Positions 33,797 to 47,597 of a stretch of DNA of 47,597 bases are shown here, piece after piece. Source of the DNA: a virus (Duplodnaviria > Caudoviricetes). Under the pieces are notes generated by a model. It made no database searches. It was not told the origin of the DNA and saw only the letters and a program-made list of their open reading frames with translations. Where the stretch lies: the IMG/VR virus record IMGVR_UViG_3300010366_000017, positions 1 to 47,597 of that record; one strand, 5' to 3'. The position numbers and the translations under genes were made by a program. How positions within the stretch are numbered: position 1 is the stretch's first letter; the number at the start of each line of letters is the position of its first letter.

Positions 33797-34118
33797 CGGG
33801 GCGGCAGGTTGCGCCGAGCAGTCCGACATGCTCGCCTGCCGCCCCGCTCCCGGCTCTATCCGGGAGAGCGTGAGCTTGCGCTCTGTCCACGCCAGCCCAG
33901 GCGGGGTCGATGTCACGCGTCCTTCCCGAGAGTTGTGACATCGAGGCTGCCCCGCCCGGAACGTGGGCTGGCGTGGACACAACGCAAGCTCCTGGGGGGC
34001 CGCCGCAACACGGCCCCCCAGGTTCCCTGTGTCAGCACAGGAACTTGAAGCTGCGGTCATGTAGGTGCGACGGGCGACTATCTGGATGAGAGATAACCCG
34101 ACGCGTCCGGCCCGCAGC
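33797..34118 (-). ncRNA. candidate structured ncRNA / leader with six consecutive stems
   Basis: Stems 33797/33846, 33847/33866, 33872/33991 (120-nt rod), 33991/34022, 34021/34046, 34050/34118; strand inferred from flanking genes. Confidence 0.65.
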
Positions 34119-34123
34119 CAAAC

Positions 34124-34414
34124 TCAGCAGTTCGGCCAGGCATCGTACGTGACCGCTAACGCGGCCTTGTCCTGAACCCATTCAGGCGCCCAGGCTGGGT
34201 CATGTCCCTTCCACGCCCACGGCGCGAAAGCGTCCCATGTCGCCTGGTCGAACTGCCACTTGCCCCGGTACCAGCCGCGGTAGCCGATCGCGTGGATGTC
34301 ACCACGCGACTCACACCAGGCGTTCGCGTACCGGATCGACTGCAACCCTCTGTATCCCGCCGTAGCGGGGGCGGCCAGCAGCAGGGCCGCCAGCACAGGT
34401 AGTGACCATCTCAC
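34124..34414 (-). CDS. rpf: secreted resuscitation-promoting-factor (Rpf)-like transglycosylase
   Basis: Signal peptide; CESRG catalytic Glu, GKWQFDQATW, PAWAPEWVQDKAA, AWPNC; GGAGG SD. Confidence 0.85.
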   Translation of the reverse strand: MRWSLPVLAALLLAAPATAGYRGLQSIRYANAWCESRGDIHAIGYRGWYRGKWQFDQATWDAFAPWAWKGHDPAWAPEWVQDKAALAVTYDAWPNC

Positions 34415-36340: not shown

Positions 36341-36358
36341 CCCGTTTGTTCAAACGGG
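36341..36358. promoter_or_regulatory. palindromic operator copy 1
   Basis: CCCGTTTGTTCAAACGGG. Confidence 0.75.
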
Positions 36359-38916: not shown

Positions 38917-39631
38917 CGCCGAGTAGCTCCCTTGAGTGTTGAACGAACAGTCCCAGCACGGTAGCCAACACGAAGAACCGGACGTTGCGTTCGGGGCCGT
39001 AGCCCAACCCTGCCCGGTCCATCTCCAGCCTCGCCTCTTCCAAGAGCGTGTCGAGCGTTTCCGCGCCGTTCTCGCGTTTGTCGGCCGGAACGGTGATCGT
39101 CCAGCTGCGGCGCAGCCGCGGCTTCTCCTTTTTGTCGGTTCTGTCGGGTCGCTTGTGAGGCAGCGGCTGCCTGCAGGTCGGGCACTCGTTCTCCAGCAGC
39201 GGCTCCGTTTTTTCCCCGGCCATTTCGAACGCCGGGTTGAAGACGACGTCGAGTGCCGCCTCAGCGCCGATCTGGCCGACCACGTCCAGGACGTTCTCCA
39301 TCTCGACCTCGATGTGCGGCGGCTGGAACGCCAACGGCAAGAACTCGTGGCCGTCCTGCTCCCAGTAGAACGCCCCGCCGAACCAGGCGATCCTGGCTTC
39401 GTTCTCGGTGATCAGCCGGTGATGCTCCCGGCACAAGGTGACGATGTTGCCGACCGCCGACCCGTCGGGGAGGATCAGCCAGTTGCGGTTCCCGACCTCG
39501 CTGCGGCGCCAGATGTGGTGCCGGTCGACGTTCTGGTTGAAGCAGCCGCCCTTCGAGCAGATCCGGGGCAGCTGGTAGTCGGGGCCGTCGAAGCCATGCA
39601 CGTTCCGGTCCTCAATCGGCAGCTTCGTCAT
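38909..39631 (-). CDS. HNH-fold nuclease with Zn ribbon
   Basis: C....C...DRHHIWRRS...NIVTLCREHH; CPTC. Confidence 0.7.
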   Translation of the reverse strand: MTKLPIEDRNVHGFDGPDYQLPRICSKGGCFNQNVDRHHIWRRSEVGNRNWLILPDGSAVGNIVTLCREHHRLITENEARIAWFGGAFYWEQDGHEFLPLAFQPPHIEVEMENVLDVVGQIGAEAALDVVFNPAFEMAGEKTEPLLENECPTCRQPLPHKRPDRTDKKEKPRLRRSWTITVPADKRENGAETLDTLLEEARLEMDRAGLGYGPERNVRFFVLATVLGLFVQHSRELLGDA

Positions 39632-43390: not shown

Positions 43391-44227
43391 CTAGCGCGAC
43401 GCAGCCTTGGTGGTCTTGCGGGCAGGCTTCCGCTTCGTCAGCGCCACGGAAGCCTTCATCTGGTCGAGGATGTCCACGACCGGGTTGTTGTCTGCGTCAC
43501 GCAGCTGCGAGTGCGGCAAAAGCACCTGCTGCTCGATCTGCTGCTGGCGCCACTGCCGTGCTTCGGTCGTGATTTCGGCCGGGTCGATCACCGACGTGAA
43601 CGTCTCGATGTAGCGGGCGGCGGTCCGCTTCTCGGTCGCCTTCGGGATCACGAGGCCGTCCGGGGCCATGCCGAACGTGCCCGGGTCGATCATGTCCTCG
43701 TCGTGGTGGAGGTAGTGCATGACGAGGCCCTGGATCCAGGGCTGAACGACGACAGGGTGTTCCTTGCCGTGCCACAAGGCGGCATGGCCGAAGCCCACCA
43801 CCTCCGCTTCCATCAGCGATGTCAGAAGCAGCGAATACTGCTTTTCGTACCCCTCCTTCGGCTTGAGCCAGTAGCTCTTCTTGACGCGGAGCGGCGACAG
43901 GTCGTCGGTGACGAACTTGTAGACCTCGATCTGGTCCGATGACCGCGTCGGCTTCGGGGCTTCCGTTTCGTCAAACGTGACCGGAACGAAAACGCCCTTC
44001 GACTGCTCGACCCCGGGCACCATCTCGTCCGGGGTGAGGTTGACGACACCACACTTCATGCAGACCGGGATCCGGTTGACGGGTGTGTTGCAGTCCTTGT
44101 GCAGGTTGACGGTCTTCCCGTTCTGGGTCGTCTGGCCCTTGACGGCGCCGTAGACGTCGACCGGGATGACGACCATGCCGGGCGCGACGATCTTCGCGCC
44201 ACGGATGGCCCTCGGTGCAGTGCTCAT
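43391..44227 (-). CDS. ku: Ku-like DNA end-binding protein
   Basis: GMVVIPVDVYGA, LHKDC..PV, IEVYKFV, SYWLKP, YSLL..SL, GLVMHYL, VVDILDQMKASV, basic tail; ATG 44227 with GAGGAG SD. Confidence 0.88.
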   Translation of the reverse strand: MSTAPRAIRGAKIVAPGMVVIPVDVYGAVKGQTTQNGKTVNLHKDCNTPVNRIPVCMKCGVVNLTPDEMVPGVEQSKGVFVPVTFDETEAPKPTRSSDQIEVYKFVTDDLSPLRVKKSYWLKPKEGYEKQYSLLLTSLMEAEVVGFGHAALWHGKEHPVVVQPWIQGLVMHYLHHDEDMIDPGTFGMAPDGLVIPKATEKRTAARYIETFTSVIDPAEITTEARQWRQQQIEQQVLLPHSQLRDADNNPVVDILDQMKASVALTKRKPARKTTKAASR

Positions 44228-44570: not shown

Positions 44571-44815
44571 CAGCCCTCGCCTCCGTGAACGCGATTGCCT
44601 GCGCCGTCCGGGTGTCTCAGTTCTGCTCGTTCCTTGAGCCGAACCTCGTACGGAACGAACTTGGGGTGTTCGATCCCCGGCAGCTTCTCGTAGACGAGCC
44701 AGTGGCCGCTGAGCCAGAACGCCTGCCGCTCGTCCTCGATCACTCTGACCTTGGACGCCTCCGGATGAGCGCAGTCCAGCTCGACTGCGATCCAGTAGAT
44801 CCCTTCGATCAACAT
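44570..44815 (-). CDS. hypothetical protein
   Basis: TGATG coupling on both sides. Confidence 0.65.
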   Translation of the reverse strand: MLIEGIYWIAVELDCAHPEASKVRVIEDERQAFWLSGHWLVYEKLPGIEHPKFVPYEVRLKERAELRHPDGAGNRVHGGEG

Positions 44816-45102
44816 CAGGACCGGACCCGGTCTGGGTCCGGGGTGAAGTCGAGCGTGACCGCGAACTTGCCGCGGTCGGGGATCGCGAAGCGGTAGGTGC
44901 CGTTCGCTTCCTCGGCCAGCTTCGAGTGCTGGTTCGCGACGACGAGCAGCGCCGATTCGACGGGGTTGAAGCCGCCGTAGGGTGAGAGTTCGATTTCGTC
45001 TACGACCACCTCGTAGGTGATCGGGAAACGAACGACCTCGCTGTCGCCGAACGGGATTTCTTCCTCCGCGATCGGCGTGACCTTCTTACTGTGCTGAGCC
45101 AT
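44815..45102 (-). CDS. hypothetical protein
   Basis: AAAGGAG SD; first gene behind the consensus promoter. Confidence 0.75.
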   Translation of the reverse strand: MAQHSKKVTPIAEEEIPFGDSEVVRFPITYEVVVDEIELSPYGGFNPVESALLVVANQHSKLAEEANGTYRFAIPDRGKFAVTLDFTPDPDRVRS

Positions 45103-45156
45103 GTCGGCTCCTTTCCGCCTGCCTGCTCAGGAAGGCAGGCTTTGACGGGAACGGCA

Positions 45157-45174
45157 TCCGTTTGATCAAACGGA
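45157..45174. promoter_or_regulatory. palindromic operator copy 2
   Basis: TCCGTTTGATCAAACGGA, perfect 18-bp palindrome. Confidence 0.8.
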
Positions 45175-45217
45175 GCCTCTGGCGGAGGCAGGGACGACTC
45201 TCCTAACCTCCAACTAC

Positions 45218-45247
45218 ATTATATCCTTTGAAAGGAATAAAAGTCAA
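45218..45247 (-). promoter_or_regulatory. strong sigma-A-type promoter
   Basis: TTGACT-18-TATAAT. Confidence 0.85.
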
Positions 45248-45317
45248 GAGTTCCTGCGCATAGCACACGCGGGTACTTCGACTCCGAGAAGTGTGTGATC
45301 AGCCTGCAAAAGAGCAC

Positions 45318-45345
45318 AAAAAAAAGGGCCTCCCGAAGGAGGCCC
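45318..45345 (-). terminator. intrinsic terminator
   Basis: GGGCCTCC/GGAGGCCC, UUCG loop, U8. Confidence 0.85.
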
Positions 45346-45360
45346 CTGGTGTGGCGCCGA

Positions 45361-45453
45361 CTAGAACGGCAGCTGGCCGGTGAGCCAGTAGCGGACGACG
45401 CAGTAGAGCACCTGCGCCGACGCGGCTAGCTCGCGGCAGCCGTGCCAGATCAC
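45361..45453 (-). CDS. 30-aa peptide (MIWHGCRELAASAQVLYCVVRYWLTGQLPF)
   Basis: GTGA coupling; ends just before the terminator. Confidence 0.4.
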   Translation of the reverse strand: MIWHGCRELAASAQVLYCVVRYWLTGQLPF

Positions 45454-45683
45454 TTGTGCCGGACGAGCCGTTGCGGCTCGTCTGCCCGCGGTGTCGCCCA
45501 GACGATGTCGGCGACGACGGACGGGTTGTGGACGACCCGCATCGAGCGGTGGTCGCAGCACGGGCAGAGATCCCCGTCGGCTAGGCAGCGCGACTCGTCG
45601 CCCTTGCGTAGCTCGTGGATCACTGTGGCGCCGCAGCCTGCACACTCGCAGCGCGACGCCTCCCAGTTCAGCTGTGGAGTCAC
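45450..45683 (-). CDS. small Zn-ribbon protein
   Basis: CAGCG...CPCC; GAGGA SD. Confidence 0.6.
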   Translation of the reverse strand: MTPQLNWEASRCECAGCGATVIHELRKGDESRCLADGDLCPCCDHRSMRVVHNPSVVADIVWATPRADEPQRLVRHK

Positions 45684-45763
45684 AGCGTCCTCTCTTTCCG
45701 CTAGCCCGTCGGCTAGCTATGTCTCGGATTCCGAGACAGGCAACACTTGTTGCCTGCTCAAAC

Positions 45764-45793
45764 AACGTATCCCGGCACGGACACTGTTGTCAA
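45764..45793 (-). promoter_or_regulatory. sigma-A-type promoter
   Basis: TTGACA-18-TACGTT. Confidence 0.7.
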
Positions 45794-45812
45794 GTCAGAC
45801 ACCTAAGGGGTT

Positions 45813-45828
45813 GCGTTTGACCAAACGC
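45813..45828. promoter_or_regulatory. palindromic operator copy 3
   Basis: GCGTTTGACCAAACGC. Confidence 0.75.
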
Positions 45829-45902
45829 GAGGCAGTCCCTACGCGCCCGCGTCGCGGTCTTTTAGAAAGACGGGCGTGCCCGGGCGAATGCTTGCGCAGT
45901 CA

Positions 45903-45916
45903 CGTTTGATCAAACG
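45903..45916. promoter_or_regulatory. palindromic operator copy 4
   Basis: CGTTTGATCAAACG. Confidence 0.75.
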
Positions 45917-45932
45917 GGTCGGCCGCGGGCAC

Positions 45933-45965
45933 AAAAAAACCCCCCGCGGCGTCTGCCGCGGGGGG
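45933..45965 (-). terminator. intrinsic terminator
   Basis: CCCCCCGCGGC/GCCGCGGGGGG with U7 on minus. Confidence 0.85.
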
Positions 45966-45968
45966 CTG

Positions 45969-45995
45969 GCTTGACTCACCTGGTGGACTCTCAGA
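45969..45995. repeat. inverted-repeat arm in the 3' UTR (pairs with 47263-47293)
   Basis: GCTTGACTCACCTGGTGGACTCTCAGA. Confidence 0.8.
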
Positions 45996-46016
45996 CGTTG
46001 TTTGTGTTGTTTGTGA

Positions 46017-47249
46017 CTAGCTGGTCTGCGGCGCCTCGGCGTCTGCCTCGGCGTCGGCCGCGGCGTCCGCGGCGGCTTGCTTCTGGGACGTCATCTCCGC
46101 CCGCAGGACGGAGAGGATGTCGGCCGGTTCGGTCGACTCCTTCCGCTCGACGTAGCGGTACTGCTCGACGGACTCCTTGGACGTCTTGTCCTGCATCGCC
46201 GCGGCCGTGAAGACGCCGAGGTGACCGAGGGAGTCGACGGCCGGGATGACCCGTTGGATCCGGTTCGGAACGTCCGACGTGCTCGGCGCCTCACCGGGCA
46301 CGCCCAAGAGCGAGTCGGAGAGGTGCGAGAGTCCGCGCCATAGCTGCTCAGCGAGGATGTCGGGATGACCCGCGGCAGTCGCGATTAGCTCGCTCATGAC
46401 GCGGGAGATGTCCGCGGCCGGGTTGCTCGGACCGGACGCCGTCGGGCGATTCGCCCGGCGTGCCTCCGCCTCCGCCTCCCGCTCCGCCTTGTCCGTCGCA
46501 GTCTCATACGCGGGCGGGACGTTCTGCCCGGCGTGCTTGTACGAGGTGCGCAGGAACGTTGCCACGTCCGCAGGAACGTTGTCCTTGCTCAGCTTGCGAG
46601 GCGCACCGTTCACGCCCGCCAGCTGCTCTTCCCAGACTGCGAAGTCCGCGTCTGAGATGTCACCTGCGGCGTGCCCGCGAGCCACGATCGCAACGTCCTT
46701 GCGACCCTCCGTTGCCAAGACGTTCTGGCGGACGGAGGCAAGCGCGGAGTCAACGTCGTCCTCGGAGATTTTCGAGTCCGGCGTCGCGGCGAGGATCGCG
46801 GCGTGAACCTTGCGCACGATCAGCCGATTGAAGCTGCGCTTGTAGGCGTTGCCCTTGCCGTGCTCGTCGGGCTTGCCCAGGTAGGTGAAGCACATCCGAA
46901 CCTGCATGATCAGCGGCACAAGCGCGAGCCGGATGGCGCGTGCCTCATCGCTGACCCGGGTGAGGCTTTCGAGTCCCGCGGCGATCCTGGGAACGAGTCC
47001 CATGACCGTCTTGGGATCCTCAAGCGCGGAGTCCTTGTCCTTGCTCGCTGCCACCAGGGCGTCGAGCGTGAACGGGTCGGAGTCCGCCCCGGGGTTGTCC
47101 TGCCCGCCCGCGTCTGCGGCGTCCGCGTCTGCGGCGTCTGCGGCGGCTTGCGCCTCCGCCTCCGCCACCTCGGCGTCCGCAGGAACGGGCGTGGCCTCCG
47201 CGGGCTTGCGTGCCCGGGAGGTACTGCGGTTGGAACTACGTGCTGGCAT
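46017..47249 (-). CDS. large early hypothetical protein (410 aa) with acidic Ala-rich termini
   Basis: GAAAGGAGG SD before ATG 47249; followed by its own terminator. Confidence 0.8.
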   Translation of the reverse strand: MPARSSNRSTSRARKPAEATPVPADAEVAEAEAQAAADAADADAADAGGQDNPGADSDPFTLDALVAASKDKDSALEDPKTVMGLVPRIAAGLESLTRVSDEARAIRLALVPLIMQVRMCFTYLGKPDEHGKGNAYKRSFNRLIVRKVHAAILAATPDSKISEDDVDSALASVRQNVLATEGRKDVAIVARGHAAGDISDADFAVWEEQLAGVNGAPRKLSKDNVPADVATFLRTSYKHAGQNVPPAYETATDKAEREAEAEARRANRPTASGPSNPAADISRVMSELIATAAGHPDILAEQLWRGLSHLSDSLLGVPGEAPSTSDVPNRIQRVIPAVDSLGHLGVFTAAAMQDKTSKESVEQYRYVERKESTEPADILSVLRAEMTSQKQAAADAAADAEADAEAPQTS

Positions 47250-47262
47250 GGCCAGCCTCCTT

Positions 47263-47293
47263 TCGGAGAGTCCCACCAGGTGAGTTTTCAAGC
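47263..47293. repeat. inverted-repeat arm in the 5' UTR (pairs with 45969-45995)
   Basis: Minus strand reads GCTTGAAAACTCACCTGGTGGGACTCTCCGA. Confidence 0.8.
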
Positions 47294-47460
47294 GTTGCCA
47301 AGTGCCCGGCCACGTCCGGGTCAAGAGTCCGCCCGACCCGCGCTGACCGCGGAGGGCTGCATCACCAGCTAAGCACAAGGGTAGGACCCGTGTCAAGCCT
47401 AAGGTCTAGCCCGACCCTAGACCATAGGTTGGACTGACCGGCGATGGCTGGCCAGCGACC

Positions 47461-47474
47461 CGTTTGAACAAACG
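47461..47474. promoter_or_regulatory. palindromic operator copy 5
   Basis: CGTTTGAACAAACG, about 65 bp upstream of a minus-strand TTGACA at 47391-96. Confidence 0.75.
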
Positions 47475-47597
47475 TGAGTCCTCAACTATTGACCACTCAA
47501 GCTCTTGAGTCGGACAGAGAGACGCGTCGAAGAGGACGCGCCCGCACACGCACGGGCGGCCCACCCCCCCCACGAGCCTGCGGCGCAAGTTGCCGAC

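Follow-up and report, generated by a model that had tools for sequence, protein, structure and literature searches.

Why should the message of a single phage gene begin and end in sequences that are complementary to each other? The question is raised by a 410-aa ORF in a stretch of 47,597 nt (the window), which is the whole of a linear virus record with 66% GC, judged 56% complete by CheckV. Terminase, major head, tail-fibre and endolysin genes lie on its plus strand, and exonuclease, ParB-like and Ku genes on its minus strand. On the minus-strand arm, the 410-aa gene (46017-47249, minus strand; AUG 47249-47247, stop 46017-46019) lies farther out than any other long gene, a position that suggests early expression, and is flanked by a promoter-like site and a terminator of its own. 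Near-identical DNA is present in soil metagenome runs of five studies. Because a contig from an independent study spans 44679-47588 with one substitution (46728), one gap (45318) and no change in the complementary arms, these arms are not an assembly artefact. The gap at 45318 is one base absent from the A run of a terminator near 45324 in contigs of three runs, possibly a homopolymer error or a variant.

The complementarity of the two UTRs is beyond chance. The initial annotation had described about 26 bp of pairing with two bulges and one mismatch, and we recover it on the minus strand, with a 5' arm at 47263-47293 and a 3' arm at 45969-45995. The surroundings that it gave for the 3' arm also hold, namely an A/C-rich spacer (45997-46014), which is unpaired in the predicted folds and would leave the 3' arm free, and an intrinsic terminator (45931-45967), seen in a terminator scan, with a 13-pair stem (45938-45967) and a U-tract. 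Folded alone, the arms are predicted to form 26 pairs, at -41.5 kcal/mol, that are interrupted by two bulges (AAA, 3 nt, and a single G) and by one C-U mismatch. Local alignment of the 5' UTR with the reverse-complemented 3' UTR scores 39, which none of 2000 dinucleotide shuffles reaches (maximum 28), and the UTR duplex energy is -45.2 versus -29.5 ± 3.3 in shuffles, with 0 of 500 as low. Among 43 genes tested, the 410-aa gene ranks first in UTR complementarity (runner-up, 27). A genome-wide scan of 1523 segments of 31 nt found one other long-range inverted repeat that scores higher (41, at 39402), made up of two coding stretches that resemble each other and lie on opposite strands.

With one ORF between inverted copies of about 26 bp, the arms might instead act as DNA, either as the termini of a mobile or invertible element or as two protein-binding sites based on a CACCWGGTG near-palindrome, a 9-mer that occurs five times in the genome. 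We consider this very improbable. The arms differ by indels, their flanks are dissimilar, with no direct repeat or target-site duplication around them, the record (56% complete) has no detectable integrase or resolvase domain, and domain and family searches give no transposase match for the 410-aa ORF, whose structural model has no Foldseek match at E 0.001. Contigs of four runs, which can show presence only, contain no strand-switch joints. Moreover, the near-palindrome is absent from the leaders of two related phages, L090 and L001, in which a core of the 5' arm is kept. The earlier preference for an RNA duplex over transposon ends, argued from the bulged pairing and from the lack of a transposase or recombinase, is supported.

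What, then, does the transcription unit look like? A likely promoter has the -35 hexamer TTGACA at 47391-47396 (minus strand), 105 nt upstream of the leader motif discussed below (104 nt in the orthologue L090), followed after an 18-nt spacer by a weak -10 candidate (47367-47372); a consensus promoter scan missed it. Transcription would start near 47360, about 110 nt above the AUG. The leader then forms, in predicted folds, a short hairpin or stem strand at 47305-47320, in a position like that of rrn boxB, and a predicted hairpin stands immediately 5' of the motif in the window, L090 and L001 leaders alike. The motif itself has a 10-nt core, TTGAAAACTC (47282-47291), that recurs unchanged in the boxA-containing leader strand of the 16S and 23S stalks of Thermoleophilia. 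It opens the 5' arm, which continues through a variable middle to an anti-SD strand. The anti-SD strand, a GAAA loop and GGAGG (47256-47260) make up a predicted SD hairpin (47256-47270) that would lock the ribosome-binding site, and a second predicted hairpin of 6 pairs (47242-47256) contains the start codon and is left closed by the 3' arm. A reading of the motif as a -35 box was rejected, as two of three leaders lack a matching -10 (by eye).

Operator-like palindromes flank the gene, one at 45903-45916 below the terminator and apart from the arms (CGTTTGAnCAAACG) and one upstream of the promoter at 47461-47474. The same palindrome, CGTTTGAnCAAACG, also lies near minus-strand promoters at 45159-45172 and 45814-45827, with weaker copies at 36343 and 43964. 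L001/L081 have a different palindrome (GTCACGCGTGAC type), with seven sites at no more than one mismatch, in matching places, and a ribbon-helix-helix protein (PF01402, 40796-40987) could be the operator binder. Promoter-like sites also precede the downstream genes, at 45247 and, by eye, near 45798 (TTGACA-18-TACGTT).

We presumed at the outset that the leader motif is a Gram-positive rrn boxA, and then compared it with genomes. A 16-nt probe retrieved at least 120 loci from GTDB. Of the 120 matches listed, 91 are followed at 142-351 nt by a 16S start, and almost all named genomes in this list are Thermoleophilia. Both 16S ends were available for 39 of the matches listed; in 36 the motif pairs with the trailer and in 3 it does not, and the 16S helices among the matches listed have energies of -44 to -56.5 kcal/mol with one G-G mismatch. 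In five genomes chosen for having the 16S site, an 11-mer occurs exactly twice each, and 9 of these 10 sites are 16S or 23S leaders, the tenth standing before a protein gene. A site in Solirubrobacter soli (L325) was considered as a 23S leader and rejected because it precedes a protein gene; there, an ABC-transporter-like ORF follows the boxA-like CCTTGAAAACTCATC at about 70 nt and may have a host mRNA with a boxA. At 23S leaders, the motif pairs with a trailer about 3.0 kb away in 15 of 21 loci, such a helix being absent within the stretch fetched from the other 6. The analogy to rRNA processing stems drawn earlier finds support, as the 5' arm opens with a host-type rrn boxA/leader-strand motif that is kept in two related phages.

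How specific this motif is depends on how much of it is taken. The bare 10-mer is not specific to rRNA, since 23 of 30 loci fetched from the class are not rrn. For L090, by comparison, agreement with the 23S-leader consensus is 18 nt long in 21 of the 23 rows compared, which represent 22 distinct sites; of these 18 nt, the 10-nt core is present by selection of the sites and the 8 flanking nucleotides are not. The match extends over 13-15 nt in L001 and over 11 in the window. A search of 151 genomes across the phylum, many without rRNA operons, found the 18-mer in one, the Gaiellaceae centre itself. The sole evidence on the host is this match to Thermoleophilia/Gaiellales-type rRNA leaders, which makes Gaiellales the likely host. 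Ku matches in genomes of the host order are about 30% identical and do not fix the host, and a small-terminase profile gave weak matches only, in 6 of 401 genomes of the class. The phage-encoded Ku itself (43391-44227; PF02735, E 2e-18) is about 30% identical to bacterial Ku.

The relatives that could be compared are few. A profile-free search of 1.84 billion representatives found five relatives of the 410-aa protein (24-44% identity), and DNA was reached for two related phages only. L090, the one among 23 loci from a metagenome scan for a neighbouring marker gene that has it, contains the 5' third of an orthologue (46% protein identity, over full P0037). L001 has a terminase 64% identical to that of the window and a first gene without significant similarity to the 410-aa gene. 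In all three leaders, CTTGAAAACTC occurs once, after the predicted hairpin; one copy is expected 0.015 times per genome of the window's composition, and the window has a single copy. The sequence 3' of the motif differs among the three. L090 has the same SD hairpin, GAAA loop included, with changes in two pairs; around its TTG start lies a hairpin of 6-7 pairs whose sequence is different. In the leader of the non-homologous first gene of L001 (590-740), the boxA core is followed by a pyrimidine run complementary to that leader's own SD and then by a very long hairpin with an operator-like palindrome at its tip.

Both arms are seen in one genotype, as L090 and L001 end inside the gene before any 3' arm; because no relative with a 3' end was obtained, the leader-trailer helix rests on that genotype. 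No relative with the whole gene was found in viral contigs (by protein or arm pattern), GTDB contigs or named phages, or in 401 class genomes, the last in a search run without a positive control. Contigs matched to L090 comprise one of 607 nt over the coding part, with no second fit at the leader. At 90 mostly low-GC loci chosen by a scan of viral contigs for the same motif plus an SD, there is no complementary arm, and downstream complementarity scores are at most 26. It could therefore be argued, from the single genotype, that the 3' arm is a private accident, a local inverted duplication of the leader, and that selection acts on the 5' boxA only. This seems improbable to us in view of where the arm lies: it fills the 27 nt between the unstructured spacer and the terminator and begins exactly at boxA, and the boxA strands of the hosts are likewise paired with trailers.

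If the duplex forms in the message, what would it do to translation? In the eight nascent fragments folded (163-1369 nt), GGAGG is paired in every one, with unpaired probabilities mostly of 0.00-0.01, and in the full transcript the first four of its bases are predicted to be unpaired with probabilities of 0.3-0.5. The predicted cost of opening the SD falls from 10.0 kcal/mol before the 3' arm to 4.7 after it, and that of opening the region from the SD to +6 falls from 16.3 to 11.0. The 3' arm pairs with boxA and the anti-SD strand, leaving GGAGG outside the helix, which ends 3 nt from the SD and 14 nt above the AUG. Since the 3' arm makes the SD cheaper to open, the prediction is that the helix relieves a block on the SD, and only in part, rather than imposing one. 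The full-length fold has the helix for 5' ends at 47300-47370 (23-24 expected pairs), loses it for 47400 and 47440 (1.6-1.8 pairs in the predicted ensemble) and largely regains it for 47480.

These folds go against the initial proposal that the finished transcript shuts itself off, so that the protein would be made only as a co-transcriptional pulse. Nor does the hok mRNA, offered as an analogue, fit. The 5' and 3' ends of that mRNA pair over the whole message, which encodes a small toxin and is countered by an antisense RNA, and its full-length form is silent; the phage ORF encodes a 410-aa helical protein and not a small hydrophobic toxin, and the predicted polarity is the opposite. Self-shut-off could still act as a steric block beside the SD, given that the helix ends 3 nt away, or through an RNase III cut that removes the terminator. 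There is precedent in icaR, where 5'/3' pairing is described as blocking initiation and inviting RNase III (PMC3868564, as far as its accessible text goes), and the part of PMC12697547 available to us reports that distant pairing can repress in vivo. We nevertheless give this reading a low probability because the 3' arm occupies the anti-SD strand, not the SD, and because the SD is fully paired in the 163-1369-nt nascent fragments and less so in the full transcript.

Because the leader carries the Thermoleophilia boxA stalk motif and the UTRs are complementary, the mRNA likely closes into a helix of the pre-rRNA type. Our leading model, held tentatively at somewhat under an even chance, is that this leader-trailer helix unlocks a ribosome-binding site that is shut during transcription. 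First, host polymerase would start about 110 nt above the AUG. Second, the nascent leader would fold the SD hairpin and the start-codon hairpin, both predicted and kept in the orthologue. Third, host NusB-S10 would likely bind boxA and hold the leader at the polymerase, as in E. coli rrn. Fourth, the 3' arm, made 1.3 kb later just before the terminator, would pair with boxA and the anti-SD strand and free most of the SD. Finally, RNase III may or may not trim the stalk, the ends presumably being clamped by about 16 or more pairs regardless. The outcome would be that only complete, end-protected messages are translated. Among the points against the model are that the start-codon hairpin stays shut (SD to +6 still costs a predicted 11.0 kcal/mol), that the helix ends 14 nt above the AUG, that the helix is lost in folds with 5' ends at 47400 or 47440, and that the -10 is weak.

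The third step depends on the host machinery. We surveyed 121 genomes, incomplete ones among them, from the order of the Gaiellaceae genome G002 (one, G590, is flagged as unpublished and was counted only). NusB scores over the cut-off in 112 of them, the Rho RNA-binding domain was found in just 8, and RNase III was found in 5 of 5 likely-host genomes. Rho may be largely lost in the order of G002, unlike in Solirubrobacter soli. With Rho so rare, the arrangement is unlikely to serve as protection from Rho, and delivery or processing is a better fit than antitermination. The leader of E. coli rrn is kept at the polymerase by the Nus complex, which has been proposed to bring it to the trailer (PMC8632103, in part); there, according to the accessible portion of PMC10250234, a helix of more than 17 pairs is essential, and loss of boxA costs only 2-3-fold. 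For Gram-positives, the text available of PMC13753749 raises the question of what the rrn Nus complex chiefly does, block Rho or bring the leader to the trailer, and the NusB-binding B. subtilis boxA given there has UCUUUGAAA in common with the host 16S form. Against a 12-nt boxA frame of the host sites, L090 and L001 match at 11 of 12 positions and the window at 8 of 12, the 10-nt core matching at 10 of 10. Because of the 8/12 match, NusB binding at the window is doubtful, and its kept core may serve RNase III or pairing instead.

It is conceivable that the helix is a processing and stabilizing stalk only, whose borrowed rRNA-type ends are trimmed by host RNase III to leave a long-lived clamped mRNA, with a minor effect on the SD. 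The kept core does extend past the NusB frame into the paired part of the host stalks, and RNase III is present in all five likely-host genomes. As far as PMC4838370 is available, fragments of 65 nt and ~82 nt place the B. subtilis trailer cut some 17 nt away from the base of the stalk; a cut of this type would map just past the phage bulge. In the account of hbs in PMC5737220, seen in part, pairing protects against cleavage. We think this reading unlikely, although not negligible, on two grounds: the phage trailer is without the host U run, so that the geometry of the host site is lost, and the conserved SD and start-codon hairpins call for a mechanism that opens them.

Alternatively, the boxA could be a site of the lambda nut or suhB type, at which Nus factors repress translation or aid read-through, the 3' arm stripping Nus or being incidental. 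It lies 20-25 nt above the SD of a phage gene with its own promoter, and the accessible text of PMC5725501 describes repression of suhB and lambda N translation by Nus complexes at distances of up to 100-200 nt. However, Rho turned up in just 8 of the 121 genomes from the likely host order, the downstream genes have promoter-like sites of their own, and no N-like protein was identified, all of which leave this explanation with little probability.

Comparison with known systems sets the phage helix beside the rrn stalk. Shared are a hairpin (predicted in the phage), a host-type boxA strand and a distant trailer, with a loop of 1.3 kb in the phage versus ~1.8 kb for 16S and ~3.0 kb for 23S, and a similar stability (about 26 pairs and -41 kcal/mol in the phage, -39 to -57 in the hosts). 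The differences are that the phage helix encloses a gene for a 410-aa protein and no rRNA; that its 5' strand doubles as the anti-SD and its trailer abuts an intrinsic terminator; and that it has a 3-nt AAA bulge where the hosts have a G-G mismatch and an A run paired with a U run, the bulge arising because the phage trailer lacks that U run. The phage feature would work like an rrn leader-trailer stalk, yet it is no rRNA operon.

Other mRNAs share single elements of this arrangement. Long-range pairing of 5' and 3' UTRs within one bacterial mRNA is known from S. aureus icaR and B. subtilis hbs (PMC3868564 and PMC5737220, both in the parts available). In icaR, a short 3' motif sits on the SD and is repressive, whereas the phage 3' arm lies off the SD and is predicted to release it; in hbs, 14 pairs shield a cleavage site, compared with 26 pairs plus boxA in the phage. 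The 5' UTRs of lambda N (nutL) and E. coli suhB likewise carry a boxA, and there, as here, Nus factors may repress translation; the accessible text of PMC5725501 describes no 3' complement for them. The 410-aa gene differs further in that its hairpin precedes boxA, which is the rrn order, in that an N-like protein was not identified, and in that the likely host is mostly without detectable Rho. Our literature search, which covered few subscription papers, returned nothing on a phage mRNA, or any mRNA, with boxA plus a leader-trailer helix, on activating UTR pairing or on Gaiellales phages.

The 410-aa protein belongs to a small unnamed family, two of six members of which have a basic N terminus. 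Its model is mostly helical and confident only at residues 70-270 (pLDDT 69 overall). Sequence searches of Pfam, PHROG and PDB gave no match, nor did Foldseek on the model at E 0.001, and the best VIA Z of 7.6 falls on a low-confidence three-helix stretch. Several faint signals point to repressors of the phiC31 c type. A phiC31-type repressor cluster is among the nearest named neighbors of two family members in the atlas (0.82 and 0.85). A Foldseek hit at E 5.8 is a 454-aa protein of phage Vash, which is probably gp23, noted as an immunity repressor and also of 454 aa. An hhalign comparison with PF25746 is collinear over 150 columns and runs through that family's invariant L, R, P-D and P, at a pairwise E of 0.02 and a probability of 2.4% (reversed control, E 0.74); a PF25746 search gave no match at E 10. 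The operator-like palindromes on either side of the gene are a further point of likeness. At four Streptomyces repressor loci, there is neither a boxA-like motif nor UTR pairing (scores 16-21). We take the repressor assignment as a weak lead, rather doubtful on balance, and not as family membership.

Elsewhere in the window, for which an Rfam search gave no match, several features merit separate mention. Positions 1074-1220, with counterparts in L087 and L090, are non-coding and visibly conserved; they contain an imperfect inverted repeat of 42 nt as well as a hairpin resembling a terminator, have no Rfam match and may be a structured RNA or a packaging or origin site. The intergenic region 33800-34124 has a 28-nt inverted repeat, 93% complementary, around a second hairpin and is possibly a non-coding RNA or an origin; its part 34047-34114 shares 80% identity with a stretch of L001 close to the first-gene promoter there (L001 1159-1224). 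A small transglycosylase-like ORF (Rpf-type, PF06737) lies at 34124-34414.

In a broader and more speculative form of our model, which we would rate as doubtful, phages of the Rho-poor Gaiellales dress their first mRNA, possibly that of a repressor, as a pre-rRNA: Nus would hand the boxA leader to the trailer, and the helix would be a translational on-switch, a checkpoint that requires transcription to be finished first. An mRNA that encodes a protein yet follows the boxA-plus-stalk plan, in hosts among which Rho is rarely found, would offer a direct reporter for leader delivery. If the model is right, this would be a case of 5'/3'-UTR pairing that activates rather than represses, and it would show a role for boxA where there is no Rho to block. 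The 18-nt match may, in addition, mark uncultured phages whose hosts belong to an abundant soil group.
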